Assembly: GCA_041666945.1 (NCBI GenBank)
Contig: JBAYFY010000001.1
Span: 55,813 to 119,812, forward strand
Source of the DNA: Candidatus Buchananbacteria bacterium
GTDB taxonomy: Bacteria; Patescibacteriota; Patescibacteriia; 2-01-FULL-39-33
Length of the DNA stretch: 64,000 nucleotides
Direction of reading: 5' to 3'
The notes below the pieces were generated by a model, which was not told the DNA's origin, searched no databases, and saw only the letters and a program-made list of their open reading frames with translations. Position numbers and translations under genes: made by a program. Shown one piece after another: positions 18,501 through 42,950 of this stretch; positions within the stretch are counted from its first letter, which is position 1, and every line of letters begins with the position of its first letter.

Positions 18501-21235
18501 CCAAGTTTTTGGACTTTAATAAGCCGGCCGGCATGGGCGATAAAATGGGCGCCATAACCGTGGTGGGAAATTTTGCCGGCAAACAAGTCGTGGAATATTG
18601 TTCCAAATTAGTCCAAGTTGTCAACTCTGGCGATGAAAATAAGGCCTGGGCCAGTCGCTTATCTCCCGGTTCGCAATATTTGGATTATTTGGGCAAGGAT
18701 TGCGTCAAAGACAGTTCGGTTTCCGGCGACGCCATTCCTTCAGGCGTGGGTATTGTTACGCCCAGCAATGATGAATTATTTTCCGACGGTTGTTTCTATA
18801 GCTCCGCTTATTGCTTGGCGGAAAGCCGTCGTCTTTATAGCGCCTCCGGTCAATTATTGGGCTTTTACCCTTTGAATTTGTGCCAGAATTTTATCGGTAT
18901 TGACGATGGCAGGGGAGTCAATGATCCTGATGATGCCACGCGTAAATTATATTGTGCCGAAGATATTTCCCTGGAGGGCAGACAGCGCACCGCTTATCTT
19001 AATCAAGCCAATGCCTTAAACTGCCAGATATCCTATAATTCCCGTCCCGCTACCGATTCCTCGGATAATGATTATTTTCAGGTTCACAGCTTTGCCAAAA
19101 ATGGATCGCTCACCATGAGTGATTGCCAGATTAATTATAAATACTTCTGCGTCAATGACAGAAGTTTCGGGGCCACAGGAGTTTGGAGATCAAAGAAACT
19201 TATTTATCGCCGTGTTTACGCGGCCGTCGGTTATAATTATACCAGCGATTACAAACCCTTCGGTTCTTTGGTAGCGCCGGAAAATGGCCAATATCCCAAT
19301 GAGTGGGACACGCGTCCTGATTCCAGCGGCAATCAGCCGATTTTCTATGAATTCCCCGGCGGAGAAAATCCGCCCTATCAAGCGCGCGCCGGGCAGAAAT
19401 CAGGCACCTCCATCTATTATATTGATAATTTTTCCGTTAATAAGCCGGATTTATTGCAATTATTCGGCCGTTCTTACAGTTTATGGCAGTGGCAAGCGGA
19501 TAAATCCAGCGATCCCTTGATCGGCCATTATGCCGACGTTACCGGCACGACCGGGTCTAATAACTCGGTTTGGAGTTTGCCCACGTTATATTGTCCCAAT
19601 AATTCGCGTCCGACTAACACCTATCTGTCATTCTGTTTGGTCAAGCCGGAATTCACTTTAGCCAAAGTCAGCCCCACTATTGTCAACAGCATCGGCGCGG
19701 TCAAAGTCAGTTTTAATTCCAAAATTGATCCGGATCAAGTGCCTATCCGTTCTTATGATGTTGATTGGGGCGATGGCAGCATCTCATCTTATGCCGGTTT
19801 GTCTTTGGCCAGCCGTCCTACCTCCTCAAATACTTTTGATTTGTATCATTTCTATAATTATGACAGTTTAGCCAACAAAAATTTGCGGGAATGCGAGACC
19901 AAAGCCGGTGTTCTGGTTTTGGGCGACGGCACGACAGAAACAATTGAAGAGTTCAATGATGATTTGACTCGGGGCGCCTGCCAAGAACCGGTTGGGTCGG
20001 TTCCCAATGCCTCTGCTTTCCATGTGCCGATTAAATTGACTGTGAGAGACAATTGGGCTTCAGCCAATTCAATAACGATTAAGGATTTGATTGTTTTAAG
20101 ACGCGATACTTATGATGCGGAACAGCAAGACGCCATTGCCGAGTGCAAGACGACCAGTTACAGTTCAGCTTTGGGCCAGCAATGCGCCAGCGGCAATCCT
20201 TGCTGTTCAGCCGCTTGTTATTGGCGGCCGGCGGAAGAAGTTAATACGGAGCAATGTTGTGCCACTTATTTCGGCGGTTGGCGCAGGTGCCAGGAGATAG
20301 GCGACGGTTATTGCGATCTGGGCGAACAGGCCACCGATGCCAATGCCGAACATTATAGTCCGGATGATTGCGGCAATATCGTATCCAATGTTACGCCGAT
20401 TGATTATGCCGATGGCATCTGTCCGGAAACCAAGTCATTGGATGATGACATTGATTGTCCTTTAGGCCAAGGCAGTTTGGTTACTTTAGCCCATGACAGT
20501 TATGACTGGCAGGCGTTTATGGCGGTAAATACCGTCGGCGGCGGTTGCGGCGGAACTCCGGATACTCAATTTAATGATGGCAGCGGCGCCAGCAAGGGCA
20601 ATTTTAACTTTAACGCCGATGCCGCTACTTTTTCCGGCTATGCCGCCAGCGGCAATACCGAATACTTTCTTGATTTGGTTTATGCTCCCAATGATACGGA
20701 AAACGACAAACAATTGCGTTACGGCGATATTTTCCGTTTGGTGCCTTGTTTCCAGGGCGTTTACGGTTTCGGTTCCAATAATTGTCCGACAGTATCGTCT
20801 GTTAATCCTGCCACTGCCGTGTCAATTCCCGCAATCAGCCCGATAAAATTGAATATTTACAAAATACAGCCGAATTGGTGGCAGCAATTATGGGGAACAG
20901 ACCCCGGAGATTGGAAAGCTTACCTTGATACTTGCGGAACGGACGGCGATGTTTATTTTAAGGTTTGCCAAAGTCAAGCTTGCAACGGTCCGGCTGATAA
21001 AGTGGGAATCGGCGATCGGGTGGTTTTAAGGATGGTAACCAATTCGGCGCAGGCTGGCGAGCCGCTTGAAGCCAGTTTGTATGATGTGGCTTTGCATGTG
21101 GGCGGAGAGGATAGAGCGCCGACTTTCTTGAATACCGAAGAAGACGCGTCCCGTCCTTACAAGGCGGCTCAAGTGAATGTTTCACCGTCTTTGAATTTTC
21201 GTCTCTGTAACCGTTATGGCAATTGCGGATATTAA
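9590..21235 (+). CDS. Giant (3881 aa) secreted cysteine-rich multidomain surface protein. It has CBM4/9-like jelly-roll modules and a PKD-like motif, and is adhesin-like.
   Basis: Single uninterrupted ORF. N-terminal signal peptide MRVNNHKFWLRHFSALALMLGLFVVGQKIVLAQS. At least 8 recurrences of C-x5-GC-x2-[FYW]. Module starts of the NIVINGGFDG... and NIVNGNFEETFG type. YDVDWGDGS (PKD signature). One internal hydrophobic segment. Confidence 0.85.
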   Translation: MRVNNHKFWLRHFSALALMLGLFVVGQKIVLAQSGVIYEIDETVVQAQAAKFCASAGSVGAVGGEEGLDCTNEIFAKTQAKLAECAAMYAAAQSSAAVCTGPQSLTCLAEVQVKIAEYHEACDSYSKYYVEGQQMAADLAKEERDIKSKKRRIQFLNALSTSASKALDTLLRSVTREATKIAFTALKGQKPAYITEGWNAYLINAADSALGDFVDNFSQHYGMDICQPDLSVQLLINVQLSQTTPRVRCTFSEIMSNWQEAVTNPVFPLEYTLALRPGENDITASLLALDLRDMAVNQQVTAKTYEASTNQGWLSKVTLNGKILTPGTLLHDMMTDAMLKKGNSQYSITWTETAMAVPFEFMDTVVAESLGLLKEGLFSLEQSAYGNNSSSGGSSNLASQGANILSGALTALFNPSASPIITEGTKGAEARINNAISGSQGQQGGKIDLIVKLSSCDDSAKTNPGPMDCVMDDALAQAVKSKTYVIDLPDQIKNRVFSPRSEQSNSLQTAIPYRSILILRQYRIVPVGWEEAADVIRNSNSNREYTLGELINCYEGIGKNGCTTNNFKGMVDPYWTLKAYETSCRRQGYGALNLNKDDQSGTIGRLEYCSDEQQCLQEDENGACLAYGYCSEERRIWDLGKTCPARANSCQTYTSRAGNAASYLTNTLDFRNCNAQVAGCRWYAVDYNPSSQTWTNLGGGTQFTSPEVINQVITFSRSNRDWWVQAGHQVSANSRLRLASPCSSEMCKLDATGKGCVFHQTTGGNYCSFQYSEAAGATGYIPQDPSCNVPDNGVSCQLRLCNDPKLFANVYAAEIENTPNLGLERALNGQETWKAASWTLAFIDNGNRHLRVTADKHSGNASLLIKTLYAPADLISYEPAIPVEKNTNYNVRFYYKGSINGSINVEVRAGDGDGLSFGQNSDLWPSLLNNLQLTDGSTGWREVNFNFNSGDNEQVVLVARNSAGVYADLYLDDFEFYPISTACGAGAVSVFVSSREGATEMYFDRDAKTCSAASDGCSQFIRTKSNLGGNIVINGGFDGALYDWSNLSLAENTKAKITHINSLDSASSNKSVQVTPGQYYFLAFDGYQASAGQTAEVDAFLRFKSKANAVLQVATSSATCEWAQEKDGSVPQTLALRFTPGSYATSSRFFCKFKAPDNAVKMELWLSSGISGQEAVIDNVKIEAISFNATYPSNYSDYNPATRPTEQISYLKKAPAYYNCYDAYPEIIGWQWPQNQQELTGVLKNKNANCSNYSGVCTPQEVGCELYRPLNGDPSIPGVAQDFDACPKECAGYQLYNQEETNFINQTFKQFIADKKLKTCSASYAGCDEFTNLDAAGQGGEQKEYYSQIRACQKPAIDDGAYYTWEGSDITGYQLVAFSLKKSQIASDPEITGAGKGSAPCTNLAHNVSGNAICSDPTDARGPGNDRYDFGVCVKDDMVSNPDCRELYDVDGNIHYRLLSRTVSVSDNCHPYRRTMTETSLTEAQTNCTSHSGWWNGNNECIYMTIPGQGKTCPATAQGCRAYTGNRGNNVKNAINVINFTASSTALDLWEDENGGKNGLFISSESTFPGGNSLSNKADNSTINYPITIAKNKAYTLSFWAKGNAAYYFDNIRFAEKSGANWDDNSAANGDNYFSASRLVGENLINPRTQLTAEWKRYELGPLFVTWEPGDGNYLEFSMPNGQIVYLDNVILKEITNQVYAIENSWFTPVSCDNKLDDPEGSRAKAENACQDAKSGRCSVGEMLGCAGYLDRSNKTSYLRSFASLCRPEAAGCEALIDTFNSSAPQAQSFNGTNGANHDDVTVAADTLVYLVNDDKYACAKGDKGCTRYGLPLIDKWDEITGYRDVYLENDPDRYSTDLCAAENLWCEEWTGNNTLIYFKDPHGKVCQFASADNTNSWDKWVKSDTAETCPTTYQQTLGLSYKAATDKLQPLGPINSVTLQEPADPAYSGWVGSCSAEQSGCSEYIDPLDNLASNLIPQRCEGKNICADVSIKKNILYVLSDNIQAGSVICSDVDNLSNNFSDDLGHYLYLATDNLKSLTCRVTFQTKDGSPIDLIKDKIGLGSVSYVLNSKVTGGDCNGQVDYHKGCILFNDRSQLDYGNLINSATTSLVFSSRLTRDNNYPQGINGLAQPVSPIATAAAGKPKDANIILKSQPNRACASWLTCSTFEKKKEGQSSALAPYFFSDQDSCLEVGACNSLGDNGICNNYLTNEAVSSDTYSPSSDANKSGFSRVGYYSFDAMTQVGQSSNIVNGNFEETFGATTQPLGWKLSTYYCASNSNCASGNPDIVYRNWQASYVTVGRDGTKAKDGVGYLKVNSGWGVISESVDILPKQEYFLSAWVHTKDLQGPGAGGRLPYAELRLRFLNSKGQPRPGLATVDGGTYEGDWVKGGIMQIPTGLPWQQVVVHFTTGDNVSGVQFALFNMNPDGEKGIDNSKLGGYTIWDNVNLKPLLKSNNAGYIDRTCRVYPSMNAPACKYNNGNNYFYGQYGYCLTPDPANSQQCLQWWPVDSIRGETLSDFSSYYSERYPLYYCLEKKTITLDVSQYTGNFGLFGEGVNESGMESLKFDQSAKQTKATSFNISPTWSPLFRYPFIYKFQFDGLFIAIGDTASHTLFGGALSVGMWKNLVCAKPLGIIPLPVCYVPIGNNLITSSDEAGAITTPAQEEIQAWIQNNPSNRVCEFSVLATLQDSDANSPVGCECDSTAEKNKGAKLNDEISDSICQSKNNCGAGSPNYNCITADLAKDYTQPISDYTYLCETTAEPCSCAAPDAEGKCEDSVHCSNSGTNKCAKVFIDSGASAGAAGVAQTISQQNQSLNDAYQNCSDENPCEGYDSGSGFWSKLWSGIKQFFGSIFSTLGNLLDIVFAPNSLNLAAEDSWGGWGAVAIAGYGQLLSFVPVNIVLHVELPWHTAKKFDTSGGVLGNLAGMIIQQAGVDLGVSTFGLRIITDEDSEFGKNLTDPNPTVTGDVLGFAKFLDFNKPAGMGDKMGAITVVGNFAGKQVVEYCSKLVQVVNSGDENKAWASRLSPGSQYLDYLGKDCVKDSSVSGDAIPSGVGIVTPSNDELFSDGCFYSSAYCLAESRRLYSASGQLLGFYPLNLCQNFIGIDDGRGVNDPDDATRKLYCAEDISLEGRQRTAYLNQANALNCQISYNSRPATDSSDNDYFQVHSFAKNGSLTMSDCQINYKYFCVNDRSFGATGVWRSKKLIYRRVYAAVGYNYTSDYKPFGSLVAPENGQYPNEWDTRPDSSGNQPIFYEFPGGENPPYQARAGQKSGTSIYYIDNFSVNKPDLLQLFGRSYSLWQWQADKSSDPLIGHYADVTGTTGSNNSVWSLPTLYCPNNSRPTNTYLSFCLVKPEFTLAKVSPTIVNSIGAVKVSFNSKIDPDQVPIRSYDVDWGDGSISSYAGLSLASRPTSSNTFDLYHFYNYDSLANKNLRECETKAGVLVLGDGTTETIEEFNDDLTRGACQEPVGSVPNASAFHVPIKLTVRDNWASANSITIKDLIVLRRDTYDAEQQDAIAECKTTSYSSALGQQCASGNPCCSAACYWRPAEEVNTEQCCATYFGGWRRCQEIGDGYCDLGEQATDANAEHYSPDDCGNIVSNVTPIDYADGICPETKSLDDDIDCPLGQGSLVTLAHDSYDWQAFMAVNTVGGGCGGTPDTQFNDGSGASKGNFNFNADAATFSGYAASGNTEYFLDLVYAPNDTENDKQLRYGDIFRLVPCFQGVYGFGSNNCPTVSSVNPATAVSIPAISPIKLNIYKIQPNWWQQLWGTDPGDWKAYLDTCGTDGDVYFKVCQSQACNGPADKVGIGDRVVLRMVTNSAQAGEPLEASLYDVALHVGGEDRAPTFLNTEEDASRPYKAAQVNVSPSLNFRLCNRYGNCGY

Positions 21236-21265: not shown

Positions 21266-24200
21266 GTGATGCCTTACCAAAAACACAAAAGAATAATTTT
21301 AACTCTGTTATTAGCCGCCGTAGTGGGAGGCGGAGTTTTGGGTGTTTTTATCAGCTGTTCTTACGCATATACTAATAGTTATATACAAAGCGCGGGACAA
21401 CTAACAGATAAAAGAATACGATTGACTGGCAATGAAAATATAGAATATCAAGTGTGGCGGTTTGGTAATCCGCCCGAATATTATTTAGTAAATCCTGCCG
21501 GGCAAGATGCGGATACAGCTATGCTCGCCGATGAGAATGGCAATCTGGTTGATCCTAATACTGGAAAATCTCAATCACAAGCAACGGCAGGAACCAGGAC
21601 AGAGACCTCCGGTGCTCAATCCGCTCTTTCCGATGTAATCGCCCGCATGCTGGCCTGGATACTTTATGGTTTAACCTACGGTTTGGGTTGGATTTTGATT
21701 TTAGTCACTAAAGCCATGTTGGCCGTCTCCACTTTTAATAATTTTACCAATCACACGGTAACCACTGTCGGTTGGAAAATTATCAGGGACGTATGCAATA
21801 ATTTTTTCATTATTTTGCTCTTAGTTTCCGCTGTCGGCACGATTCTGCACCAGAAAAACTACGATTTTCGCACGATGATGCCCAAGATCCTGTTAGCGGC
21901 GGTTCTTATCAATTTTTCCAAAATGTTTTTCGGCTTGATGATTGACGCCTCGCAGATTTTAATGTTGACTTTTGCCGCTCCGCTGGCGCAAAGCACCGGC
22001 TATAATGTGATTTTGAATGCCCTGGGCTTGCCTGATTTAATGTCTTTAAGCGGCGTGGCCGCTCAATTGGAAGCAGTCGGTTTCAGCACTTGGAATTTGG
22101 TGGCAGCCATGTTGTTTGCGGTTATTTTTACTTTTATCGCTTTAGTGGTGATCGTGTGCATCACTGCTGTTTTGATGTACCGGGTTGTTTATATGATGTT
22201 TCTGGTTGTGTTATCGCCCCTATATTTTTTCGGCTGGGCCTTTCCTGCCGCTGGCAAACATACCAATCAAATTTTAAGCGATTTGGTCAAATACCTGATT
22301 ATCGGTCCGGCCATGATGTTTTTTATTTATATTTCCCTGATTACGCTTAAGGATCTTGGAAATGGTGAACAGTTTGACAGTACGATTTCCTATGATTTGC
22401 AAACTACCGGGACCGGCGGCAGCGCGGAATTGCAAAAAGAAGCGGCGGTGGCGACCGGGCTTAGTACGGAGAATTCCACTATTTTGGCCTTATCTAAAAT
22501 GGGGACAGTGGAAAAAATTATTAATTTCGGTTTATTGATCGGTTTGCTTGTTTGCTCTTTGGTAATCGGTCAAAAATTGGGTACGGCCGGCGGTTCCTGG
22601 GCCGGCAAAGGCATGGGATTTTTAACTAAACAAGGCAAGCGTTTCAGCGGCTTTAATCTGGCCAAACGTACAGCTAAAGAAGCTCCCAGAGCCATTAGCA
22701 CGGCCGTTGATGACAGATTGGGCATCAGGCAAAGGTTGTATTCCGGCCTCTACCAAGTCGGCGGCAAAAACATACCTTTCGCGCGTGAGGCCCTGGGCGG
22801 CAAAATAGAGTCGCTGGAAGCGGGCACCACCAAGAGGTTTAATCAAAGAATCAGAGCAGTGGCCCAGGGAGCAAAAATTGATAAAAAGGATGAGAACCAA
22901 TTGCGCGATTTAGCTTCCGGCGGCGCTAAATATGAAAAGATTGCCGCTATTCAGGCCCTGATGAAGAAGGGTTTAATCAGAGATGATGAAATCAATGAAA
23001 GCAAGAAACGCAATAATATTGATTTGGTTAATCAAGCGCGTCTCGCTTTGGAGGGGACGGAATTAGGCAAAGAGTTTGATGAGAATTTGAGAAAATACAA
23101 TCCCAATTTGGCCATGAATACCATGTATACCAGGGCAGGCAAGATTAATCGCGAGAAATTGGAGTCGGATCTTAAGACCGGCAAAGTTGATTTGAATAAG
23201 ATTATGGGCAGTATGGACCCCGCGACCTTAACCAATCTTAATGAAGCGTTGGGCGGCAAAAAAAATGACGCCGGACAATTTGACGATACTTTGGCTAAAT
23301 TTTTAATGAAGCATGGCGCCGGCGATTTATCTAAATTGGATAAAGCCATGTCCTCGGAAGTCAAGAAGAGCATCTGGTCCGGGGTCTCTCACACGTCTTT
23401 CATTAAAAAGGACGCCCAAGGCAATAATATTATTGACGCCGCCGGCAGGGCTGCTTATGACGAAGATTTGCGCAAAGAATATTTGTCAACGAAATATGAC
23501 GTGGCCAAGGCCTATGATCGCAGCGATCCGGAACAAAAAGAAAAAGCGCGTAAGTATTTCAGCGAGAATCGCAATAAGGTTTTGGAGAATATGCACTCTG
23601 ACGGCATGACGGCCGATTTTATGCGCGATTTCGGCGATTTGGTTTCGCCTAAAGAATTGCAGGAGAAATTCGGCGATCGCAGCAAGGAACATTCGGGTAA
23701 GATGGAAGCTGCTCTAAGAGAGGCGATTGTCGGTAATGGCGGAAACATCAGCCCTTACGATTTCGGCCAATTGAATGGCAATCTGGCAGAAGCCAGAAAA
23801 GGATTAAGCGTTGCCACTGGAGCAAGCAGAAGCGCCGCCCAGCAGGCCGTTGATCAAGCGGCAAAGAATTTGAAAGACGCCGAAGAAATGATTAAGAAGT
23901 ATTTGTTGTCCCAGGGGTCGTTTGAAGGCATCACCGGGCAAGTCAATGCGGAAAACAAATCAAATATCGTCGGATCGCTTAAAGCCGAAGAAGCGGAAAA
24001 AATCAAGTGGGGCAGTTTGTCCGATGCCGATCAGAGAGCGGTAGCTCAAGGCATGGATGCCAACACCTTGTGGGTAATCGGCGCCAGAGGCAATAATAAT
24101 GAATTAATAAAAGGCGTCAAACAGAGAATTTTTGACGAAGTGGAAAACGACCCGGTGAAAAAGGGGTACGATGATTTGATTGAGCGAGCTAAAAAATTAA

Positions 24201-24505
24201 GATCCGAAGACGAGCAAATAGAGAGCGATTTAAAGAGCTTGCAGGCAAAAGGCGATCCGACATTGCAAAACGATATTAACGCGTTAATGCTAAGACGGGT
24301 AGAATTGAGAGGCGATCAAGCCAGAGGCATTGAAGGAGAGAGAAAGAAAATAAATGACGCCATTGAAAAATTTTTAAAAGAAAACGAGAGATTCTTCGTG
24401 GATATTAACGAAGATCGCCCGAAATTTAAGCCGACCGATTGGGATAAAAAAGCCCGAGCGATTAAGGGCAAGAAAAAGGGCGGTGATTTTGAAGAACAAG
24501 CATAA
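21266..24505 (+). CDS. VirB6/TrbL-like polytopic membrane protein (TcpH/PrgH-type) with a ~700-aa charged coiled-coil C-terminal extension
   Basis: About 7-8 TM helices between aa ~120-440 (e.g. ILLAAVLINFSKMFFGLMIDASQILMLTF, VVIVCITAVLMYRVVYMMFLVVLSPLYFFGW). A K/E/D-rich tail follows. It starts 30 nt after the giant gene. Confidence 0.55.
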   Translation: MMPYQKHKRIILTLLLAAVVGGGVLGVFISCSYAYTNSYIQSAGQLTDKRIRLTGNENIEYQVWRFGNPPEYYLVNPAGQDADTAMLADENGNLVDPNTGKSQSQATAGTRTETSGAQSALSDVIARMLAWILYGLTYGLGWILILVTKAMLAVSTFNNFTNHTVTTVGWKIIRDVCNNFFIILLLVSAVGTILHQKNYDFRTMMPKILLAAVLINFSKMFFGLMIDASQILMLTFAAPLAQSTGYNVILNALGLPDLMSLSGVAAQLEAVGFSTWNLVAAMLFAVIFTFIALVVIVCITAVLMYRVVYMMFLVVLSPLYFFGWAFPAAGKHTNQILSDLVKYLIIGPAMMFFIYISLITLKDLGNGEQFDSTISYDLQTTGTGGSAELQKEAAVATGLSTENSTILALSKMGTVEKIINFGLLIGLLVCSLVIGQKLGTAGGSWAGKGMGFLTKQGKRFSGFNLAKRTAKEAPRAISTAVDDRLGIRQRLYSGLYQVGGKNIPFAREALGGKIESLEAGTTKRFNQRIRAVAQGAKIDKKDENQLRDLASGGAKYEKIAAIQALMKKGLIRDDEINESKKRNNIDLVNQARLALEGTELGKEFDENLRKYNPNLAMNTMYTRAGKINREKLESDLKTGKVDLNKIMGSMDPATLTNLNEALGGKKNDAGQFDDTLAKFLMKHGAGDLSKLDKAMSSEVKKSIWSGVSHTSFIKKDAQGNNIIDAAGRAAYDEDLRKEYLSTKYDVAKAYDRSDPEQKEKARKYFSENRNKVLENMHSDGMTADFMRDFGDLVSPKELQEKFGDRSKEHSGKMEAALREAIVGNGGNISPYDFGQLNGNLAEARKGLSVATGASRSAAQQAVDQAAKNLKDAEEMIKKYLLSQGSFEGITGQVNAENKSNIVGSLKAEEAEKIKWGSLSDADQRAVAQGMDANTLWVIGARGNNNELIKGVKQRIFDEVENDPVKKGYDDLIERAKKLRSEDEQIESDLKSLQAKGDPTLQNDINALMLRRVELRGDQARGIEGERKKINDAIEKFLKENERFFVDINEDRPKFKPTDWDKKARAIKGKKKGGDFEEQA

Positions 24506-24508
24506 ACT

Positions 24509-25027
24509 ATGGCTGATCAAATGACAAAAGAGTTGGGCGCAATCGCCGAGTTAAAACGGTTCAATCCTTGGATCGACTCTTTTCAGTTGTCTGATCCCGA
24601 GATTTATGCGGTTATTGATTTGATCGGCCAGGTGATTTGGGGCGACATGACTTTAGAAGAATTCCCTTTGGCTTTGCAGAAAGCGGTTATCAAGGATGAC
24701 GCCGCTAAACGACGTTTGATTATAGAAATTGCCAAAAACCGTTTTAAGGATTTTCAAGACGATCTTGGCGATGTTGACGCTTTTATCAATAATTTTCAGT
24801 CCGGGAACAGTGTCGTCTCCCCTGTGGTTGAAAACAGCTCTCCTAAGGAAACAAAAAACCTCCCGCCTTCGCCGGCTGTTTCTGCTTTAGTCAAACCGGT
24901 TAACAGCCGGGATGAAATATTGAGACAGTATGACTGGTCGGCCACCACCGGCTTGGAACGCCGTTTGCTGTTGGAAGAATTAGGCGTCAGCCGGCAGGAG
25001 TTGGAAGATTATTTGAAGAGTAATTAA
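24509..25027 (+). CDS. Hypothetical protein (172 aa), translationally coupled within the T4SS-like module
   Basis: ORF with a 3-nt gap to its neighbours. No recognisable motif. Confidence 0.55.
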   Translation: MADQMTKELGAIAELKRFNPWIDSFQLSDPEIYAVIDLIGQVIWGDMTLEEFPLALQKAVIKDDAAKRRLIIEIAKNRFKDFQDDLGDVDAFINNFQSGNSVVSPVVENSSPKETKNLPPSPAVSALVKPVNSRDEILRQYDWSATTGLERRLLLEELGVSRQELEDYLKSN

Positions 25028-25097
25028 TCATCCCCGTTATCCGATAATCGTCACGCAGCCATCCTTCTGAAATTCAAAGGGTGGCGACAAAATTATT

Positions 25098-26507
25098 ATG
25101 CCCCAAGATTATTTAAACAAACTTAAATCTTTACCGCCAACAGTCAAAAACAAACTGTCTACGGATGCGATATTGTCTAAATTGGATGCTTTGGACGAAG
25201 AATTCGGCATCAAATCCACCTCTTTGGTAATCAGTATTCTTTTAGGTGAAGTGACTACCGGAGTTTTAGCGGATAAATTGAAGACCGATTACGGTTTTAA
25301 TGATTATTTGGCGCATCAAGTAGCCAATGGCGTTAGGGAAGTAGTGAATGAAGTCGGTTATTACGGCCGGCCAGCTGGAATGGCCGCCCTCCCGGCGAAA
25401 GAAAGCAGAAAACCGATTCTTGACGCCTTAAACAAACCGCAAAATTCCACAGTTATGACTTTTTCCCGCGAAGATGAAGAGGAAATTGAAAAATATATTG
25501 AGTCGGTTAAAACGACGCCGCGGATTACCGATTATACCGATGCCGCCACCTCAATTATCCTGTCTTTTGGTTATCCGGTCAGTGATGAAGTGATGATTAA
25601 GCGTCTGGGCTCAATCATTATCGCCCGACTCAAAGATATTCGCGATGAACTGGAAACCAAGGAGAATTTAATGAAAAGCCGCAAGGTTGGAGGTATGGAA
25701 TTTCCTGAAGCCGATGCCGACAGAATATTGAAGATTATCAAATCAGTTGTTGCCGGGCAGGCCGCGCCGGCTGACGCCGGAGCGGTTTCAAAGGAATTGC
25801 AAGAAATTTTAGCGGCCAATGAAGAGGCCGACACAATAACGCCGCCCGTTGAAAAACAGCAGCCAAGAATTTCCCCCGCTCCTCCCACTATAGAAATGGA
25901 AGACGGCTTGCCGGTAATTCGGATGCCTGATGATTTAATGATCAGGCCGCGGGATGAATCTGCTGTTTTAGAAAAGAAACTCGGCTTAACGCCGTCTTTC
26001 GAGCAGGGGAGAAAGAAACCTCAATTGCCCACAGCCGCACAAGATGTTAAAATTAAGACAGCCAAGGATTTGCCTTTGCCGCAACCCCAGCCGTTTGCGG
26101 CCAGAGAAACTTTTACCGGCAATCTGGCCATGCCGCGTTCGACCGGCCGGCCGAACTTGGATGATGTCAAATTCAATAAAAAATTAATGGGACCGATTGA
26201 AGAATTGGAGAGTATGACCTTGATCGATTTCCGCCGTTTATCCCCCGATCCGGTTGCGGTAACAGCCAAAATTAAGGAGAAAATTGATTTATTGGAACAA
26301 GAGCATTTTGGCAAAAAAATCGATGGTATAGCGGCTTGGCACAAAAATGAAGTCAGTAAATTTTATCGTTTATTGGGCCAAACGGCCATGGCTGAAGGCA
26401 AGAGCATTGAAACGGTAATCAAAGAGCGCCTGACTGACGGTAAACCGACTTTGTCGTTAGATGAATTCCATGCCGTTATGGGGCTTAATCGTAATTTACG
26501 TTATTAA
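25098..26507 (+). CDS. Hypothetical Pro-rich protein (469 aa)
   Basis: Long ORF on the operon strand with a Pro-rich central region (PPVEKQQPRISPAPP...LPLPQPQP). No recognisable catalytic motif. Confidence 0.6.
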   Translation: MPQDYLNKLKSLPPTVKNKLSTDAILSKLDALDEEFGIKSTSLVISILLGEVTTGVLADKLKTDYGFNDYLAHQVANGVREVVNEVGYYGRPAGMAALPAKESRKPILDALNKPQNSTVMTFSREDEEEIEKYIESVKTTPRITDYTDAATSIILSFGYPVSDEVMIKRLGSIIIARLKDIRDELETKENLMKSRKVGGMEFPEADADRILKIIKSVVAGQAAPADAGAVSKELQEILAANEEADTITPPVEKQQPRISPAPPTIEMEDGLPVIRMPDDLMIRPRDESAVLEKKLGLTPSFEQGRKKPQLPTAAQDVKIKTAKDLPLPQPQPFAARETFTGNLAMPRSTGRPNLDDVKFNKKLMGPIEELESMTLIDFRRLSPDPVAVTAKIKEKIDLLEQEHFGKKIDGIAAWHKNEVSKFYRLLGQTAMAEGKSIETVIKERLTDGKPTLSLDEFHAVMGLNRNLRY

Positions 26508-26509
26508 TT

Positions 26510-26953
26510 ATGCAACAAGTGGTTGTGCCGCAATTTTTGGATGTTGAGGATAAAATTATCGGACCGATTTCCGTCCGTCAGTTTGTTGAGTTGATTGTCG
26601 GCGGATTAATTATCGTGATTTTTTATCGCATTTTTGATTTTTCTTTGTTTATCGTCTCCGGTTTGATAGTTTTGGCTATAACTTTAATCGTGGCCTTCGC
26701 CAAAATTAACGGCCAGCCCTTTCATTTATTCCTGCTTAATTTTATCCAGACCTTAAAAAATCCCAAGCTTAAAGTTTGGCGTAAATTTTTCACCCTGGAT
26801 GAAATAAAAGCCGATTTAATTAAGCCCAAAGAAGAAAAACCGCCGCTTCGGATGGCCGCGCGCCAGCCCGTCAGCAAATCCCGCCTGTCGGAAATCGCTT
26901 TGGTCATTGATACCGGCGGTGTCTACCAGGGAGAAAACGGAGTTAATGATTAA
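26510..26953 (+). CDS. PrgI-family / VirB3-like small two-TM T4SS membrane protein
   Basis: MQQVVVPQFLDVEDKIIGPISVRQFVELIVGGLIIVIF...FIVSGLIVLAITLIVAF. This is the typical size and topology, and it sits immediately upstream of VirB4. Confidence 0.55.
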   Translation: MQQVVVPQFLDVEDKIIGPISVRQFVELIVGGLIIVIFYRIFDFSLFIVSGLIVLAITLIVAFAKINGQPFHLFLLNFIQTLKNPKLKVWRKFFTLDEIKADLIKPKEEKPPLRMAARQPVSKSRLSEIALVIDTGGVYQGENGVND

Positions 26954-27001
26954 ATTAAACTTAGCCCGCCGGCGGGCGGATTATAAACCGAATTTTATTG
27001 T

Positions 27002-27685
27002 ATGGCTAAAAATCGACAAGCCACCAAAACCACCCCCTCAACCCAGAAATTCTTGCAGATAGCGGAGATCAGGGACGACACTATCGTAATGAAAGACGGC
27101 ACTTTGCGGTCAGTGATTTTGGTGTCCTCAATTAATTTTGCGCTTAAATCCGAAGACGAACAGAACGCCATTATTTCCGGTTATGTCAGTTTTTTGAATT
27201 CTTTGGATACGCCTCTGCAGATTATCATTCAATCGCGTCAACTGGATTTGGAATCATATCTGGAATTTTTAAAAGATGCCGAAACCAAACAAACAAATGA
27301 TTTGCTAAAAATGCAAATGGCCGAATATCGGCAATATATCACAGAATTGGTGGAATTGGGCAATATTATGACTAAACGATTTTTGGTCGTGGTGCCTTAC
27401 GAGCCCTTCCGGTCAAAAACCAGGAATTTTTGGCAGCGGAGCGGCGATATCCTGTCGCCGACAAAAGTTTTATCTTTGGGGCAAAAACAATTCATGCAAA
27501 GACAGCGGGAACTTTTAACCATAGTGGACAGGGTTTTAACCGGTTTGGCCAGCATGGGTTTGCGCGCCCAGGTTTTAGACACCCAATCATTAATTGAAAT
27601 TTTTTATAACACCTACAATCCGACTGTTTCTCGCAGTGAAAAATTGGTTGACGTTAATAAATTAAGAACCGAAGACCTCGTTTAA
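27002..27685 (+). CDS. VirB4-family ATPase, N-terminal domain fragment (split gene)
   Basis: IAEIRDDTIVMKDGTLRSVILVSSINFALKSEDEQNAIISGYVSFLNSLDTPLQIIIQS matches the N-domain of Gram-positive VirB4 (TcpF/PrgJ/TraE type). The stop lies 4 nt before the next ORF in another frame. Confidence 0.6.
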   Translation: MAKNRQATKTTPSTQKFLQIAEIRDDTIVMKDGTLRSVILVSSINFALKSEDEQNAIISGYVSFLNSLDTPLQIIIQSRQLDLESYLEFLKDAETKQTNDLLKMQMAEYRQYITELVELGNIMTKRFLVVVPYEPFRSKTRNFWQRSGDILSPTKVLSLGQKQFMQRQRELLTIVDRVLTGLASMGLRAQVLDTQSLIEIFYNTYNPTVSRSEKLVDVNKLRTEDLV

Positions 27686-27689
27686 TTTT

Positions 27690-29594
27690 ATGTTTACTCC
27701 CGAAGATATCAACAAACAAACAACCCCGCCGCCGGTCGGCTATGCTCCGCCGCCAGCGCCAACGCCGCAACAAAAGAAACAAACAGAACTCAAAGAGTTG
27801 CAAACGGCGCGTGAAGTTTTAGAAGAGGAGAGAATTTATCGGCGCGGCGTCGTTTCCGTCCGGGATTTAATAGCTCCGGCCGCTTTGGAAGTCAATTCCG
27901 ATCATATCAGGTTGGGTGAACTTTACATTAGGACCATCTTTGTTTTTGAATATCCGCGTTATATCGCTGTCGGCTGGTTTGCGCCGATTATCAATATGGA
28001 TATTGAGGCGGACATGGCCATGTATTTTTTTCCGGTCAAAGCCGCGGTCATTTTAAAGCAGCTAAAGAAAAAAGTCGGCGTATTAGAGGCGACAATTATT
28101 GGCGCGGCGGAAAAAGGCGCGCCTCGCGATCCTCTGGCCGAAACTGCTTTGCGCGATATGGAAAAGTTGCGCGATGATCTGACCCAGGGCATTGAGCATT
28201 TTTTCCAATTCTCGCTATATGTGACGCTATATGCCAAAACACTGGAGGAATTGGATAAGACCTCGGAACGCATTGAGAATTTTTTCGGCGGCACTTTGAT
28301 TTTCTCCCGCCGGGTATTCTATCAGGCCGAGCAAGGTTTCAATTCCACTTTGCCCATGGCGTATGACGAACTCCAGGTTTATATCAACCTTAATTCTTCA
28401 CCGGCCGCTTCTTCCTTCCCGTTCGTTTCTTCCGATTTGACTTCCGATCATGGCATTCTGTACGGCATCAACCGCCACAATAACAGCTTAATCCTGTTTG
28501 ACCGTTTTTCCCTGCAGAACGCCAACTCCGTGGTGTTTGCCACTTCCGGCGCCGGCAAGTCCTATACGATTAAATTAGAGGTCTTGCGCAGCATGATGTT
28601 CGGCACCGATGTGATTATCATTGATCCGGAACGCGAATATAACCATTTGTGCGAAGCTGTTGGCGGCACTTACATTGACATCTCGCTTAATTCTGAAGGC
28701 AAAATCAATCCTTTTGATCTGCCTCGCGCTATTGGCGAAGACGCCAAACCGGCGGATATTATCCGCAATGCCGTTATCACTGTTAAGGGGCTGGTGCGAT
28801 TAATGATTGGTGATGTGACGCCGGAAGAGGACTCCATTATTGACCGCGCGCTATTAGAGACCTATGCCAAGAAAGATATTACGCCCGATGCCGATTTACG
28901 CACCGTGGAGCCGCCCATTATGCAGGATTTCCAGGATATCCTGGAGGGCATGGAAGGCGGCAACAATATTGTTTTGCGGCTCAAGAAATACACTGAAGGC
29001 ACTTTCTCCGGCTTGCTCAATCATCCGACTAACGTCCAATTGAATAATCAGCTGGTGGTTTTTTCCGTCCGCGATTTGGAAGATGAACTAAAGCCGCTGG
29101 CGATTTACACCATTGTCAATTATATTTGGAATATTGTCCGTTCGGAAATGAAGAAAAGGATTTTGGTGGTGGATGAGGCCTGGTGGCTGATGCAACGCGA
29201 GGATTCGGCCAAATTTATTTTTGCTTTAGTCAAGCGTTGCCGCAAATATTACTTGGGCGTTACGACTATCACCCAGGATGTCAATGATTTTCTGACTTCT
29301 CCCTACGGCCAAGCCATCGTCAATAATTCCGCCATTCAATTGCTGCTCAAGCAATCTCCGGCGGCCATTGATTTGGTGCAAAAAACGTTCCTATTAACCG
29401 AGGGCGAAAAATATTTGCTATTGGAGGGCGCGGTAGGCGAAGGCATTTTCTTTGCCGGCGCCAAACATGTGGCGGTTAAAGTTGTGGCTTCCTATTCCGA
29501 AGACCAATTGATTACTTCCGACCCGCGGCAATTATTGGAAATTGAGGCGGCCAAGAAAGAGTTTGCCGAAGCGATGCTGTCGCAGAATAATTAG
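27690..29594 (+). CDS. VirB4-family T4SS ATPase, central and C-terminal ATPase portion
   Basis: ...YIRTIFVFEYPRYIAVGWFAPIIN..., Walker A FATSGAGKSYT, Walker B LVVDEAWWLM, and ...GVTTITQDVNDF. Confidence 0.85.
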   Translation: MFTPEDINKQTTPPPVGYAPPPAPTPQQKKQTELKELQTAREVLEEERIYRRGVVSVRDLIAPAALEVNSDHIRLGELYIRTIFVFEYPRYIAVGWFAPIINMDIEADMAMYFFPVKAAVILKQLKKKVGVLEATIIGAAEKGAPRDPLAETALRDMEKLRDDLTQGIEHFFQFSLYVTLYAKTLEELDKTSERIENFFGGTLIFSRRVFYQAEQGFNSTLPMAYDELQVYINLNSSPAASSFPFVSSDLTSDHGILYGINRHNNSLILFDRFSLQNANSVVFATSGAGKSYTIKLEVLRSMMFGTDVIIIDPEREYNHLCEAVGGTYIDISLNSEGKINPFDLPRAIGEDAKPADIIRNAVITVKGLVRLMIGDVTPEEDSIIDRALLETYAKKDITPDADLRTVEPPIMQDFQDILEGMEGGNNIVLRLKKYTEGTFSGLLNHPTNVQLNNQLVVFSVRDLEDELKPLAIYTIVNYIWNIVRSEMKKRILVVDEAWWLMQREDSAKFIFALVKRCRKYYLGVTTITQDVNDFLTSPYGQAIVNNSAIQLLLKQSPAAIDLVQKTFLLTEGEKYLLLEGAVGEGIFFAGAKHVAVKVVASYSEDQLITSDPRQLLEIEAAKKEFAEAMLSQNN

Positions 29595-29659
29595 CAACCA
29601 AGAGGCGAGCAGCGGCTAAACGGCAATAACAAAAAGAAGAAAATAATCTAAATTTTTAT

Positions 29660-30229
29660 ATGCTTGAAGATCGACGACGATTGGTACTGATTATTTTAGC
29701 TATTGCCATAGTGCTATCTTTAGCAGTAGCTTTATGGTTGATATTCGGACCTCAAAAAAAACCCCAGAATCAACAAACCGGGTCGACACCGCAGGTGGAG
29801 ACAGGTGGCAGCGCCGCTACTTTCGGCTTGCCGGCAGCGCCGCCGGAGCGTTTGGAACAGGAAAACGATTATCCCATCGGCTTAAAGCAATTAGCCATGT
29901 CTTTTGCCGAACGCTATGGCAGTTATTCCACTGACGAACCGCAAAAAAATATCAAGGATTTGGAATCGCTTATGACTGTGACAATGTATAAAACGTCTTT
30001 GGCCCAAACGCCGGTTATCGGCGCGGCCGGGTTTTCCGGTTACTCGGTCAAAGCGCTTTCTGCCGATTTGCAAAGCGTAAAAACCGATTCAGCGGCAGTA
30101 TTAGTCAAAACCCAAGTCACGCAAACCAGCGGCGACGGCATTACGCCCAATGTTTACTATCGCAACTTGCAATTAACTTTTATTAAATCCGGCACAGAAT
30201 GGCTGGTGAATCAGGCGAAATGGCAATAA
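29660..30229 (+). CDS. Small bitopic membrane protein (189 aa), possible VirB8-like/NTF2-like T4SS component
   Basis: N-terminal TM LVLIILAIAIVLSLAVALWLIF plus a ~150-aa extracytoplasmic domain. Its position is right after VirB4. The assignment rests on topology and context only. Confidence 0.5.
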   Translation: MLEDRRRLVLIILAIAIVLSLAVALWLIFGPQKKPQNQQTGSTPQVETGGSAATFGLPAAPPERLEQENDYPIGLKQLAMSFAERYGSYSTDEPQKNIKDLESLMTVTMYKTSLAQTPVIGAAGFSGYSVKALSADLQSVKTDSAAVLVKTQVTQTSGDGITPNVYYRNLQLTFIKSGTEWLVNQAKWQ

Positions 30230-30879
30230 ACAATATTAAAGAACAGATCGCCGATTTGTTGTTTCCGCGTTACTGCCTAAGCTGTCGGCGGGAAGGTGAG
30301 TGGTTGTGCGAGAAGTGCTTGATAACTTTGCCGGTCGGAAAAAGGCAATTGTTTTTGCCGGTCGGTGTTGGTGGAATAGAAGTTACGGCTTTATTTGATT
30401 ATGATCAATTACTGATGGGCAAGATTATCGCCGCCTTAAAATATAATTTTGCCTTTGATCTGTCGCGAACCGTTCATCGTTTGGTGAGTGAAGTAAAATT
30501 GACAGAACAAATAGGCAATGATCCCACAGTTTTAGTTCCAGTGCCCCTGCATCGTCGTCGGTATCTTTGGCGCGGATTTAATCAGGCGGAAATAATCGCA
30601 CAAGCCCTGGCGGCCGCTAATTCTTCTTGGTCAGTTTGTCCGGATTTGCTTAGGCGAGTTATTTACTCTAAGCCGCAAGTCGGACAAAAACAAAAAGATC
30701 GGGTTAGAAGCGTGCAAGGAGTGTTCCGGATCAATTTGGAGCGATTAAGCGATAATTGGAATAAACGTATTATCTTGGTTGATGATGTTTTAACCACGGG
30801 CTCTACTTTAAGCGAATGCGCCGAAGTTTTAAAAACCGCTGGATTCGCTGAAATTAGCGGTTTTGTCTTGGCTACATGA
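30220..30879 (+). CDS. comFC: ComF family protein (ComFC; phosphoribosyltransferase-domain competence protein)
   Basis: N-terminal zinc finger CLSCRREGEWLCEKC and PRTase motif ILVDDVLTTGSTLSE. Start at MAINNIKEQ, overlapping the upstream ORF by 10 nt. Confidence 0.85.
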   Translation: MAINNIKEQIADLLFPRYCLSCRREGEWLCEKCLITLPVGKRQLFLPVGVGGIEVTALFDYDQLLMGKIIAALKYNFAFDLSRTVHRLVSEVKLTEQIGNDPTVLVPVPLHRRRYLWRGFNQAEIIAQALAAANSSWSVCPDLLRRVIYSKPQVGQKQKDRVRSVQGVFRINLERLSDNWNKRIILVDDVLTTGSTLSECAEVLKTAGFAEISGFVLAT

Positions 30880-30938
30880 TGGACGGGGGCTTTACAAAAG
30901 ACATGCTTTTATGATAGAATAAGCAGGTTGCGTTGTTT

Positions 30939-31030
30939 GGAGAGATGGCCGAGTGGCTGAAGGCGGCGGTTTGCTAAACCGTTGTACGTCTATTATGGGC
31001 GTACCGAGGGTTCGAATCCCTCTCTCTCCG
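30939..31030 (+). tRNA. tRNA-Ser (anticodon GCU), class II with a long variable arm
   Basis: Cloverleaf folded by hand. Acceptor GGAGAGA/TCTCTCC, anticodon loop TTGCTAA, variable-arm hairpin GTACG/CGTAC, T arm GAGGG-TTCGAAT-CCCTC. No encoded CCA. Confidence 0.88.
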
Positions 31031-31077
31031 AATGTACTCTTGAAAGGGTAAACTTTACAATATAATTAACATAAAAT

Positions 31078-31314
31078 ATGTATTCACAACTCTATTCCCA
31101 AAACCCATGGATTATAGTCCTGATGCTGGTTTTGGCGCTTTGGACAATTCCTTGGAAAGGTTTAGCGCTTTGGAAATCGGCTCGTCGTGGCGATACTGCT
31201 TGGTTTATTGTTCTCTTACTGGTTAACACTCTGGGTATCTTGGAAATCCTGTACATTTACGCCTTTAGCGGCAAGAAAGAGAAGAAAGAAGAACCGGTAA
31301 CTCCAGTCGTTTAA
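31078..31314 (+). CDS. Small two-TM membrane protein (PLDc_N/DUF-type)
   Basis: 78 aa. WIIVLMLVLALWTIPWKGLALWKSARRGDTAWFIVLLLVNTLGILEILYIYAF. Confidence 0.55.
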   Translation: MYSQLYSQNPWIIVLMLVLALWTIPWKGLALWKSARRGDTAWFIVLLLVNTLGILEILYIYAFSGKKEKKEEPVTPVV

Positions 31315-31411
31315 GTACCGGCATCAGGACTAAACCAAAAAAAGAGCGGGAGTGACTGGCAGCAGCCGCTGCGTCATTGTATTTTATGTATCTTAGAAAA
31401 GAAGCAAAGAT

Positions 31412-31498
31412 GGAGAGGTGGCAGAGCGGTTGAATGCGTCAGTCTTGAAAACTGAAGTCCCCTTAAAAGGACCGCGAGTTCGAATCTCGCCCTCTCCG
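31412..31498 (+). tRNA. tRNA-Ser (anticodon UGA), class II
   Basis: Acceptor GGAGAGG/CCTCTCC, anticodon loop CTTGAAA, T arm GCGAG-TTCGAAT-CTCGC. Confidence 0.88.
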
Positions 31499-31537
31499 AA
31501 ATAAAAGCACCTGCAATTATTTAATCACATATAGTAT

Positions 31538-32038
31538 ATGCCTCAAAATGAAAAAACCTTAGAACAGCTTAGTCGCGTGGTTTTTTCCTGGCAGTATCCG
31601 GAATTTGTCGTCTATCATAAAGATAAGCGTTGGTATGTCATCTCGCTTATAGTATTGGTCTTGGCTTTGGCTTGGACGATTTATGACAAGAATTATTTAT
31701 TCAGCGCTTTCTTATTGTTGTTTTATTTATTGGTTATATTTTATGAGAGCCGGCAACCGGAAATGATTGATTTTACTATCACGGAAGACGGGGTAAAATC
31801 AGGCGACAATTTTTATTATTTCAAAGATATTGATCATTTTTATGTTGTTTACCAGGCGCAAGGCGTAAAAAATCTTTACTTGGAATTCCGCAATCCTTTG
31901 CGCAGCCGTTTGATTGTGCCGCTGGTCGGCCAGAATGCCGTGGCCGTCAGAGATTTTTTATTGCAACATTTAGCGGAAGATCTGGAACGGGAAGCCGAAC
32001 CTCTTTCCGAGCAATTAAGGCGCTGGCTTAGATTGTAG
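31538..32038 (+). CDS. Hypothetical membrane protein (166 aa)
   Basis: ORF with two adjacent TM helices (WYVISLIVLVLALAWTI / FSAFLLLFYLLVIFY). Confidence 0.5.
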   Translation: MPQNEKTLEQLSRVVFSWQYPEFVVYHKDKRWYVISLIVLVLALAWTIYDKNYLFSAFLLLFYLLVIFYESRQPEMIDFTITEDGVKSGDNFYYFKDIDHFYVVYQAQGVKNLYLEFRNPLRSRLIVPLVGQNAVAVRDFLLQHLAEDLEREAEPLSEQLRRWLRL

Positions 32039-32118
32039 GACTTGATTTATATCGGCAAAAATGATAAGATATGAATCTGTTTCAAAAAGCTGTTTTTGGG
32101 ACAGATTATTAGTATCAT

Positions 32119-32192
32119 GTACCCGTAGCTTAGCTGGATAAAGCGTCGGCTTGCGGAGCCGGAGACCACAGGTTCAAATCCTGTCGGGTACA
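32119..32192 (+). tRNA. tRNA-Arg (anticodon read as GCG)
   Basis: Acceptor GTACCCG/CGGGTAC, D stem GCTT/AAGC, anticodon stem TCGGC/GCCGG with loop TTGCGGA, T arm ACAGG-TTCAAAT-CCTGT, A20 and C35 present. The isotype call is less certain than the tRNA itself. Confidence 0.75.
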
Positions 32193-32235
32193 CAATTAGT
32201 TAAAATTTTATAAAGTCGAAAGTCCATAAAGTTAG

Positions 32236-39179: not shown

Positions 39180-39842
39180 TTAACCGCCATCCTCAATTTC
39201 CCCCTCGTTTTCGCCGGCAGTAGCGCCGCTTGACGGTTGCGGACCAGCGTCTTGAGCGCTCGGCGAGGCGGCGGGAGCAGCCGCCGGGGAGCCGGTGTTA
39301 CTTTCCTGAACGCATTCCAAACTCCCGCTGATTAATTTTTCCGGGTCATTGATTAGGTAGCTTATGGCGCCGTTAAGATAGAATGACCAGCCGCATTTTT
39401 CATAAGCGTAATACATGCTGCCGCCAATCATAATAACAATAAGAAGCAGTAGAATAACTACCCAAAGCCACCAAGTTCCGGCGATAAAAGTCAAGGCCAT
39501 CCAAACATACCTGACTGTTTTGACGGTTTTCGCGGCTTGTTGGATTTTTTGTTTCGCTTCACTGGTTTCTTCAGCGGCTTTAGCGGCAGTATTGGCGGCT
39601 TGAGCTTTTTCAGAATTAAGCATGTCGGCCTGATTATCATCCGAAGAAGCTGAATTGGATCGGCTATTTTTGCTTTGTTGGTTTTCTGTTTGTCCGAACG
39701 CGGCTGAACGGCGGCCCAAGGCAGTATCCACCGAAGAAAAATCATCAGCGCGAATCAATTCATTACGCTTGGCGTTTTTTTGGCTGTTTATTTGATTGGC
39801 TATATTTGCCTCATCTATTATAACCCGTTCATCATCCGCCAT
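39180..39842 (-). CDS. Hypothetical bitopic membrane protein (220 aa)
   Basis: Charged N-terminus, TM VWMALTFIAGTWWLWVVILLLLIVIMIGG, and an Ala/Pro/Ser-rich acidic tail. Confidence 0.5.
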   Translation of the reverse strand: MADDERVIIDEANIANQINSQKNAKRNELIRADDFSSVDTALGRRSAAFGQTENQQSKNSRSNSASSDDNQADMLNSEKAQAANTAAKAAEETSEAKQKIQQAAKTVKTVRYVWMALTFIAGTWWLWVVILLLLIVIMIGGSMYYAYEKCGWSFYLNGAISYLINDPEKLISGSLECVQESNTGSPAAAPAASPSAQDAGPQPSSGATAGENEGEIEDGG

Positions 39843-42934: not shown

Positions 42935-42950
42935 TTTCGTCAACTTAATC

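Follow-up and report, generated by a model that had tools for sequence, protein, structure and literature searches.

A 64-kb stretch of a metagenome-assembled genome (MAG) of Candidatus Buchananbacteria, class ABY1, hereafter the window, was analysed with regard to the genes at positions 21266-30879, which code for a type IV secretion system (T4SS). The locus very probably represents a chromosomal, vertically inherited T4SS of the Patescibacteria clade, descended from monoderm conjugation machinery of the type MPF_FATA. This assignment is based on PrgI and VirB4 matches above the curated cut-offs, the identification of TrsD, the presence of pilins, a conserved gene order, housekeeping genes on both flanks, collinearity with the operon of the Enterococcus faecalis plasmid pCF10 and agreement with the component repertoire in the literature. 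Of the characteristics of the clade, the window showed a VirB4 of MPF_FATA type, a separate TrsD, PrgI, pilins of the family PF18895, a housekeeping context and neither relaxase nor type IV coupling protein (T4CP) in the cluster. The locus is a further example of the published Patescibacteria T4SS and not a new kind of system. Our additions are modest and comprise structural support for a VirB8, a conserved giant protein encoded upstream, a family of 469-aa proteins, a fusion of pilin and SLT domain, and the position of ComF and RadA at the operon ends.

Components of the secretion locus

The locus is an unbroken run of eight open reading frames (ORFs) on the plus strand:

21266-24505, plus strand: extended VirB6/TrbL-like polytopic membrane protein, 1079 aa
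24509-25027, plus strand: soluble protein without known family, 172 aa
25098-26507, plus strand: soluble Patescibacteria-specific protein, 469 aa
26510-26953, plus strand: PrgI/VirB3-like protein (PF12666), 147 aa, two transmembrane (TM) helices
27002-27685, plus strand: TrsD/TraD-like protein (NF041427), 227 aa, the N-terminal domain of VirB4 as a separate gene
27690-29594, plus strand: VirB4 ATPase (NF045971), 634 aa, without the N-terminal domain
29660-30229, plus strand: VirB8-like bitopic membrane protein, 189 aa, with TM helix, linker and NTF2-like domain
30199-30879, plus strand: ComF/ComFC-type protein, 226 aa, with zinc-ribbon and phosphoribosyltransferase domain; final gene of the run

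The gaps between the ORFs in 21266-30229 measure, in order, 3, 70, 2, 48, 4 and 65 nt, and the ORFs of the VirB8-like protein and ComF overlap by 31 nt, or by 10 nt when counted from the second ATG of ComF. A giant ORF (9590-21235) stops 30 nt short of 21266. An earlier reading of this DNA by a model that saw only the letters and their ORFs (the sequence-only reading) had described one tightly packed operon that takes in the giant protein and ComFC, in agreement with these distances (gaps of 2-70 nt, one overlap). The run starts upstream of 21266, with the giant ORF and probably a preceding 355-aa gene. Operon limits were set by gaps and strand only, because promoter and terminator scans of 8000-40500 gave results near the shuffle level: terminator-like sites occurred at that level and promoter-like sites modestly above it, scattered over both strands.

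Related loci were collected by a VirB4 scan of one genome per species, in which more than 599 stretches matched and 587 were confirmed as relatives. The comparison covers the best 80 of these 587, with VirB4 70-88% identical; their labels are nearly all Patescibacteria, Buchananbacteria, Falkowbacteria, Parcubacteria or unclassified MAGs. The VirB8-like and the 469-aa protein of the window show 100% identity to Candidatus Buchananbacteria proteins. Adjacency of ComF was counted over the 61 loci with enough downstream sequence, and RecG and RadA over the 38 loci with at least 8 kb downstream.

VirB4 affiliates with the CD1110 family (NF045971, 355.8 bits against 325; cut-offs are given in this form throughout, and those for VirB4 and PrgI are curated) and with P-loop_TraG (E=7e-31), and its Walker A (SGAGKS) and Walker B (VVDEAW) motifs are intact. 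PrgI scores 34.6 bits against 27 for PF12666, with TM helices at aa 20-38 and 46-64. Both matches substantiate the Gram-positive-style (MPF_FATA-related) T4SS core that had been proposed from the sequence. TrsD, which ends 4 nt before virB4, was identified by NF041427 (E=5.8e-11) and aligns to positions 95-215 and 2-119 of VirB4 models.

The product of 21266-24505 begins with an N-terminal TM helix, has about seven further TM helices within aa 120-445 and ends in a cytoplasmic tail of some 630 aa that is charged and coiled-coil-like. The protein itself has no Pfam match and a weak NCBIfam match to pLS20_p028 (E=0.0018). Among its relatives PF04610 (TrbL/VirB6) is the sole recurrent Pfam family, found in 13 of 45 syntenic orthologues and 14 of 50 library representatives, with a best E of 8.7e-7 and scores mostly under the gathering score. 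An exhaustive search with the VirB6 domain reached 12,155 library clusters at E<=0.001, a word-indexed search 3. The family profile retrieved coiled-coil noise from the tail only among PDB sequences, and the TM domain had no match in plasmids by tblastn. The affiliation as VirB6-like is supported but indirect, being transitive via the relatives; topology and gene position agree with it. Of the PrgI and VirB6 calls made without database searches, that of PrgI stands directly, and that of VirB6 is supported by way of PF04610 in related proteins.

For the VirB8-like protein (29660-30229) an AlphaFold2 model built from a 20-sequence alignment (pLDDT 79.9) predicts one N-terminal TM helix and an NTF2-like domain. 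The family profile aligned with PrgL by hhalign (E=2.9e-5). An N-terminal TM helix followed by an extracytoplasmic NTF2-like domain whose nearest structures are VirB8 is what defines a VirB8, and this is the predicted architecture of the protein. The structure prediction newly supports the VirB8-like identity, which had been tentative when first proposed.

ComF (30199-30879) contains a four-Cys ribbon (CLSC...CEKC) and the phosphoribosyl pyrophosphate (PRPP) loop ILVDDVLTTGST. It matches Pribosyltran (35.1 bits against 26.3) and DZR_2 (E=2.5e-4). Its match to TIGR00201 has an E-value of 1.8e-27, but with 96.5 bits it falls short of the curated cut-off of 233.55.

The 172-aa and 469-aa proteins have no family, PDB sequence or fold match. 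In the model of the 469-aa protein, disordered Pro-rich linkers connect three small, confidently predicted helical domains; the gene of this protein lies directly 5' of PrgI in 68 of the 80 loci. The 172-aa protein aligned with the N-terminal helical domain of the 469-aa protein (hhalign probability 96%, E=1.5e-9), so that the N-terminal domain of the former looks like a duplicated domain, paralogous to that of the latter. A separate 172-aa gene was found in only 4 of the 80 loci. In one relative (L001, 7405-8856, tblastn coordinates) the two regions are apparently fused in one 484-aa ORF. These two conserved genes and the split of VirB4 into TrsD and ATPase had been missed in the first parts list, in which the remaining genes were placed correctly.

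Further components are encoded about 5 kb downstream on the minus strand, in a pilin operon that ends with RadA; RecG is encoded between the two T4SS operons:

39180-39842, minus strand: membrane protein without significant family, 220 aa, one TM helix
37924-39162, minus strand: single-pass membrane protein, 412 aa, TM helix at aa 8-26, present in 15 loci
36878-37927, minus strand: VirB2-like pilin (PF18895, 35.7 bits against 26.6)
35644-36855, minus strand: VirB2-like pilin (PF18895, 30.7 bits) fused to a C-terminal SLT lytic transglycosylase domain (E=1.7e-18)
34306-35637, minus strand: RadA/Sms, with AAA_25, KaiC-type ATPase, zinc ribbon and Lon_C
32236-34314, plus strand: RecG helicase, with RecG_wedge, DEAD and Helicase_C

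Both pilins are paralogues with 42% identity over 224 aa. The product of 35644-36855 is arranged as signal peptide, Cys-rich N-region, pilin domain with two TM helices and SLT domain, a VirB2-VirB1 fusion. The same architecture was seen in a distant relative labelled Nomurabacteria (L083, 18178-19368). RadA follows pilin-SLT on the same strand, with its start 6 nt past the preceding stop, and is the final gene of the operon; the adjacency recurs in L083, L025, L050, L066 and L071, in both orientations. The gene at 37924-39162, a predicted beta-propeller protein, travels with the pilin genes, and its L083 homologue lies between pilins. From its position only, 39180-39842 is probably the first gene of the operon; its product was not detected in the related loci. 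With pilins, an SLT domain and a predicted beta-propeller protein encoded 5 kb downstream, the description of the core as minimal has to be given up.

Two genes precede the core on the plus strand:

8517-9584, plus strand: single-pass membrane protein, 355 aa, TM helix at aa 48-66, stop 5 nt 5' of the giant gene
9590-21235, plus strand: giant Sec-exported Cys-rich protein, 3881 aa, with signal-peptide-like N-terminus

The 355-aa protein, probably encoded by the first gene of the plus-strand operon, has a TSP3_bac repeat below threshold (E=0.03) and is otherwise without Pfam family; a gap of 256 nt separates its ORF from KsgA. The giant protein consists of 3.4% Cys and contains, even when scanned piecewise, a single firm domain, CBM_4_9 at aa 842-957 (E=4e-9). 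It has no match among PDB sequences and, at BLAST level, neither internal repeats nor domains in common with other proteins of the window. In 25 of 41 loci the VirB6-like gene is preceded by a homologous large Cys-rich ORF on the plus strand; the other loci are mostly short of upstream sequence. Conserved blocks were found at aa 2470-2600, 2870-3030 and 3210-3500, and the C-terminal ~380 aa are lineage-specific. Conserved blocks combined with a lineage-specific C-terminal extension are the pattern expected of a fast-evolving recognition protein.

Conservation and chromosomal context

The synteny expected across related genomes was found. The order 469-aa gene, PrgI, TrsD, VirB4 and VirB8-like gene is kept in essentially all 80 loci; PrgI was detected in 74 of them, and ComF lies directly 3' of the VirB8-like gene in 33 of 61. 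RecG occurs in 28 of the 38 loci with sufficient downstream sequence. The region 3' of VirB8 takes three arrangements, which are related by inversions of one block. In the window ComF is followed by RecG on the plus strand and by RadA and the pilins on the minus strand; the second arrangement has RadA on the plus strand and then RecG on the minus strand, and the third has pilins and RadA on the plus strand before RecG on the minus strand.

In the distant relative L083 all T4SS parts are encoded on a single strand. Two large proteins of 1523 and 1548 aa are followed by VirB6 (weak TrbL hit), a 469-aa-like protein, PrgI, TrsD and VirB4, and then by a 192-aa protein, pilin, beta-propeller, DsbA, pilin-SLT and RadA; ComF is absent from this locus. 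The DsbA/thioredoxin gene (17546-18181) lies inside the cluster between beta-propeller and pilin-SLT, and none was seen in the window. Its presence in L083 is consistent with disulfide formation in Cys-rich exported components.

Housekeeping genes border the locus on both sides. The left flank contains KsgA (7364-8260), Der, Pth, DprA-TopA, RelA/SpoT, ParB and ParA, and the right flank LigA (57086-59083), glycosyltransferases, MreB, a class I tRNA synthetase, the delta' subunit of DNA polymerase III and ribosome recycling factor. The GC content of the cluster is the same as that of the surrounding window. The window ORFs from 100 aa upwards and the called genes within ~8 kb past each end (about 80 kb of the 300-kb contig, window -8184 to +72181) were scanned with Pfam. 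No relaxase, no VirD4/TcpA-type coupling protein, no VirB9, VirB10 or VirB11 and no integrase was detected, and no repeats were seen in this stretch. The absence of relaxase, VirD4 and VirB9/10/11 noted earlier for the core thus extends over the whole inspected region.

Cumulative GC skew climbs monotonically over all 64 kb, most genes lie on the plus strand, and ParB/ParA (L081 15034-16715) are located ~2-4 kb left of the window start. GC skew, strand bias, ParAB and KsgA suggest a near-origin cluster, as reported for Patescibacteria T4SS loci. The segment between ComF and RecG (30938-32193) begins with a tRNA-Ser at 30938, 3' of ComF, and holds two tRNA-Ser (GCT, TGA), a tRNA-Arg (GCG), a DUF5652 protein and a 166-aa protein with two TM helices; in 30 related loci RecG is accompanied by the 166-aa gene. 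The window also holds a complete type IV pilus cluster on the plus strand (44698-56160), with genes for PilM, PilB, a response regulator, PilT, PilC and PilD, one major pilin and three minor ones. Upstream of it (40277-44618) are the genes of two large secreted proteins, 885 and 566 aa long, without Pfam family.

Two further explanations of the locus were considered and rejected. Frameshifts in a metagenome assembly could in principle have produced both the split VirB4 and the overlapping ComF, and the source is indeed a metagenome contig. A separate TrsD ORF of ~226 aa 5' of a ~630-aa VirB4 is, however, present in 79 of the 80 loci, and TrsD is a recognised family (NF041427; PMC12102498). Judged from this recurrence in independent assemblies, the split is genuine and not a sequencing error, and with overlap or adjacency of ComF in 33 loci an artefact can practically be dismissed. 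The second explanation is an ordinary or decaying conjugative element, that is an integrative and conjugative element (ICE) or integrated plasmid, with relaxase and coupling protein outside the inspected region. In its favour, VirB4 fits best to the conjugative CD1110 family, the genes are collinear with those of pCF10, and T4CP homologues have been reported elsewhere in many Patescibacteria genomes (PMC12102498). Conjugative MPF_FATA systems such as pCF10, pIP501 or ICEs carry relaxase and VirD4/TcpA next to the mating-pair genes; within the ~80 kb neither was found. The sequence-only reading had named a VirD4 or relaxase just beyond the window as the finding that would reveal an ordinary ICE, and a search for it ended in housekeeping genes on both sides. 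Moreover, all genes are intact, their GC content does not deviate, hundreds of related MAGs have the same locus with its genes in the same order, and a published patristic-distance analysis gave 99% within-class inheritance (PMC12102498). On conservation and on the flanks inspected, within ~80 kb of the 300-kb contig, an ordinary ICE is very improbable, and the view that the locus is something else was upheld.

Relation to published systems

Secretion systems of this clade have been described in three studies. McLean et al. 2020 (PMC7427843) reported homologues of VirB4, VirB6 and VirB2 together with an array of secreted proteins in Saccharibacteria, and GntX, a ComF homologue and competence gene, in the T4SS region of TM7x. 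By transposon sequencing, Wang et al. 2023 (PMC10633639) found the T4SS cluster and pilin array of Southlakia epibionticum, which lack recognisable coupling or relaxase proteins, to be essential for epibiotic growth; comEC, comF and dprA made no fitness contribution, and transformation required comEC. In a survey of 3,035 genomes, Quinonero-Coronel et al. 2025 (PMC12102498) placed VirB4 in a monophyletic Patescibacteria clade nested in MPF_FATA. In that study TrsD was the most frequent partner, PrgI, VirB6 and PF18895 pilins were widespread, relaxases were nearly absent, and KsgA and origin-proximal genes were common neighbours. VirB8 (PrgL-like) hits were almost confined to the class ABY1, comF, recG and radA were located beside the T4SS in ABY1, and a DNA-import hypothesis was already proposed. 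A 2025 FEMS review lists the Patescibacteria systems as a recognised T4SS group (PMC12857230), and they are the only T4SS shown to be essential to their owner (PMC10633639; PMC12857230).

The window differs from these systems in no essential point. It shares with them the VirB4 of MPF_FATA lineage, the separate TrsD, PrgI/VirB3, an indirectly supported VirB6-like protein, the PF18895 pilins, the lack of a nearby relaxase or T4CP and the chromosomal near-origin site by KsgA, as well as, within ABY1, comF/recG/radA and a PrgL-like VirB8. The giant Cys-rich secreted protein, the 469-aa helical protein and the pilin-SLT fusion are absent from the three reports (PMC12102498, PMC10633639, PMC7427843), and the 2025 survey detected no PrgB-like adhesin (PMC12102498). 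The published experiments concern Saccharimonadia and not ABY1. The statement that the combination was uncharacterised is accordingly correct insofar as no ABY1 system has been studied experimentally, but gene content, comF linkage and the idea of import were published in 2020, 2023 and 2025.

The closest prototype of MPF_FATA is pCF10 of Enterococcus faecalis, with whose order PrgB adhesin, PrgH (VirB6), PrgI (VirB3), PrgJ (VirB4), PrgK and PrgL (VirB8) the locus is collinear; the monoderm architecture without VirB7/9/10 is likewise common to both. In contrast to the window, pCF10 has the T4CP PcfC, the relaxase PcfG and an oriT, transfers DNA outward and lacks VirB2 pilins. It encodes VirB4 as one protein and VirB1 (PrgK) as a separate large one, whereas in the window VirB6 carries a tail of ~630 aa and the adhesin candidate is unrelated in sequence to PrgB.

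Proposed roles in host contact or DNA import

We favour, at about even confidence, the reading of this T4SS as a ComF-independent host-contact translocon or pilus; it fits the Southlakia genetics, and the same window encodes a type IV pilus cluster, with which ComF is usually partnered. TrsD/VirB4 would act as a membrane-associated ATPase powering a channel of VirB3, VirB6 and VirB8. Driven by the same ATPase, the VirB2-type pilins would assemble an extracellular filament through the cell wall, and the SLT domain would open the peptidoglycan. The giant CBM-bearing protein may serve the T4SS as surface adhesin or as partner in host recognition, a role proposed because it holds the place of PrgB in the collinear pCF10 operon. 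The combined parts would mediate contact and macromolecule exchange with the host cell, and ComF and RadA would be passengers in a conserved neighbourhood near the origin, sharing the location and perhaps the expression.

Several observations weigh against parts of this reading. The VirB6-like family aligned weakly with PrgH (hhalign probability 8.8%), and the VirB6-like call is below threshold for the window protein itself. The beta-propeller prediction for 37924-39162 comes from weak Pfam hits only, in the window protein and its L083 homologue. The evidence for the adhesin role consists of a signal peptide, a single CBM domain, the high Cys content and the place of the gene. The overlap of ComF with the VirB8-like gene and the 6 nt between pilin-SLT and RadA are a gene order that could mean a DNA role. 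Likewise, 36 of 38 loci have at least one of ComF, RadA and RecG within ~9 kb 3' of the VirB8-like gene in spite of the inversions, and so persistent a linkage could mean a real function in DNA handling.

These last points lead to the alternative of a DNA-import machine, which we regard as possible but doubtful. Here the T4SS would work in reverse, like ComB of Helicobacter pylori or the crenarchaeal Ced, and draw DNA from an attached host or the environment; single-stranded DNA (ssDNA) would be passed to ComF, RadA and RecG for recombination or salvage, and the giant protein would serve in host attachment. In favour of import, the core operon ends with the overlapping ComF gene and the pilin operon with RadA, the latter likewise in L083. 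ComF next to VirB8 in 33 of 61 loci and the presence of at least one of ComF, RadA and RecG in 36 of 38, across all three inversion arrangements, point in the same direction, as does GntX/ComF in the TM7x region. ComB and Ced are import systems that lack both relaxase and T4CP. The lack of both in the window matches such systems, and the machinery is derived from ssDNA translocators. In H. pylori a T4SS without relaxase or coupling protein and ComFC belong to one pathway (PMC9005727). ComB differs in being a diderm system with VirB7/9/10 homologues, which takes double-stranded DNA across the outer membrane and leaves the inner-membrane step to ComEC; the system of the window is of monoderm type, derived from MPF_FATA and known here from its genes, and no VirB7, VirB9 or VirB10 (ComB7/9/10) family was found among the window ORFs. 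Ced (CedA/CedB) belongs to the wider MPF_FATA-related radiation and combines a VirB4/HerA-like ATPase with a VirB6-like protein, without relaxase or T4CP, to import DNA; it differs in being archaeal and in its other accessory proteins. A Ced system is recognised by a CedB-type ATPase together with CedA, and the CedB model NF041017 gave a marginal 43.3 bits against 700, over ~80 residues only.

Against import stands foremost that in Southlakia the T4SS is essential and comEC, comF and dprA are not, and that deletion of comEC abolishes transformation; moreover, the window encodes a complete type IV pilus, with which ComF is canonically partnered. As simple inversions of one block account for the different arrangements, the linkage of ComF, RadA and RecG may be plainly inherited and not selected, and ComF is missing from L083. 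DprA (1816-2904) was considered as added support for a DNA role and rejected as uninformative, being located in the DprA-TopA pairing. This pairing is common across bacteria. The ComB-like import role had originally been drawn from gene order only, and the dispensable comF in Southlakia and the type IV pilus cluster in the window speak against it. The full model for ABY1, in which giant adhesin, VirB2 pilus, VirB6/3/8 channel and TrsD/VirB4 would carry out contact-dependent DNA import and hand ssDNA to ComF/RadA with RecG, we consider unlikely.

Patescibacteria account for much of the diversity of bacteria and apparently live on other cells. The window is a clean, complete ABY1 example that sharpens two ideas, the giant protein as a missed adhesin and ComF and RadA as the genes closing both operons. 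If true, DNA import would explain how these nucleotide-auxotrophic bacteria acquire host DNA, and it would add to ComB and Ced a third T4SS-based uptake route of independent evolutionary origin, common throughout a huge radiation of uncultured bacteria.

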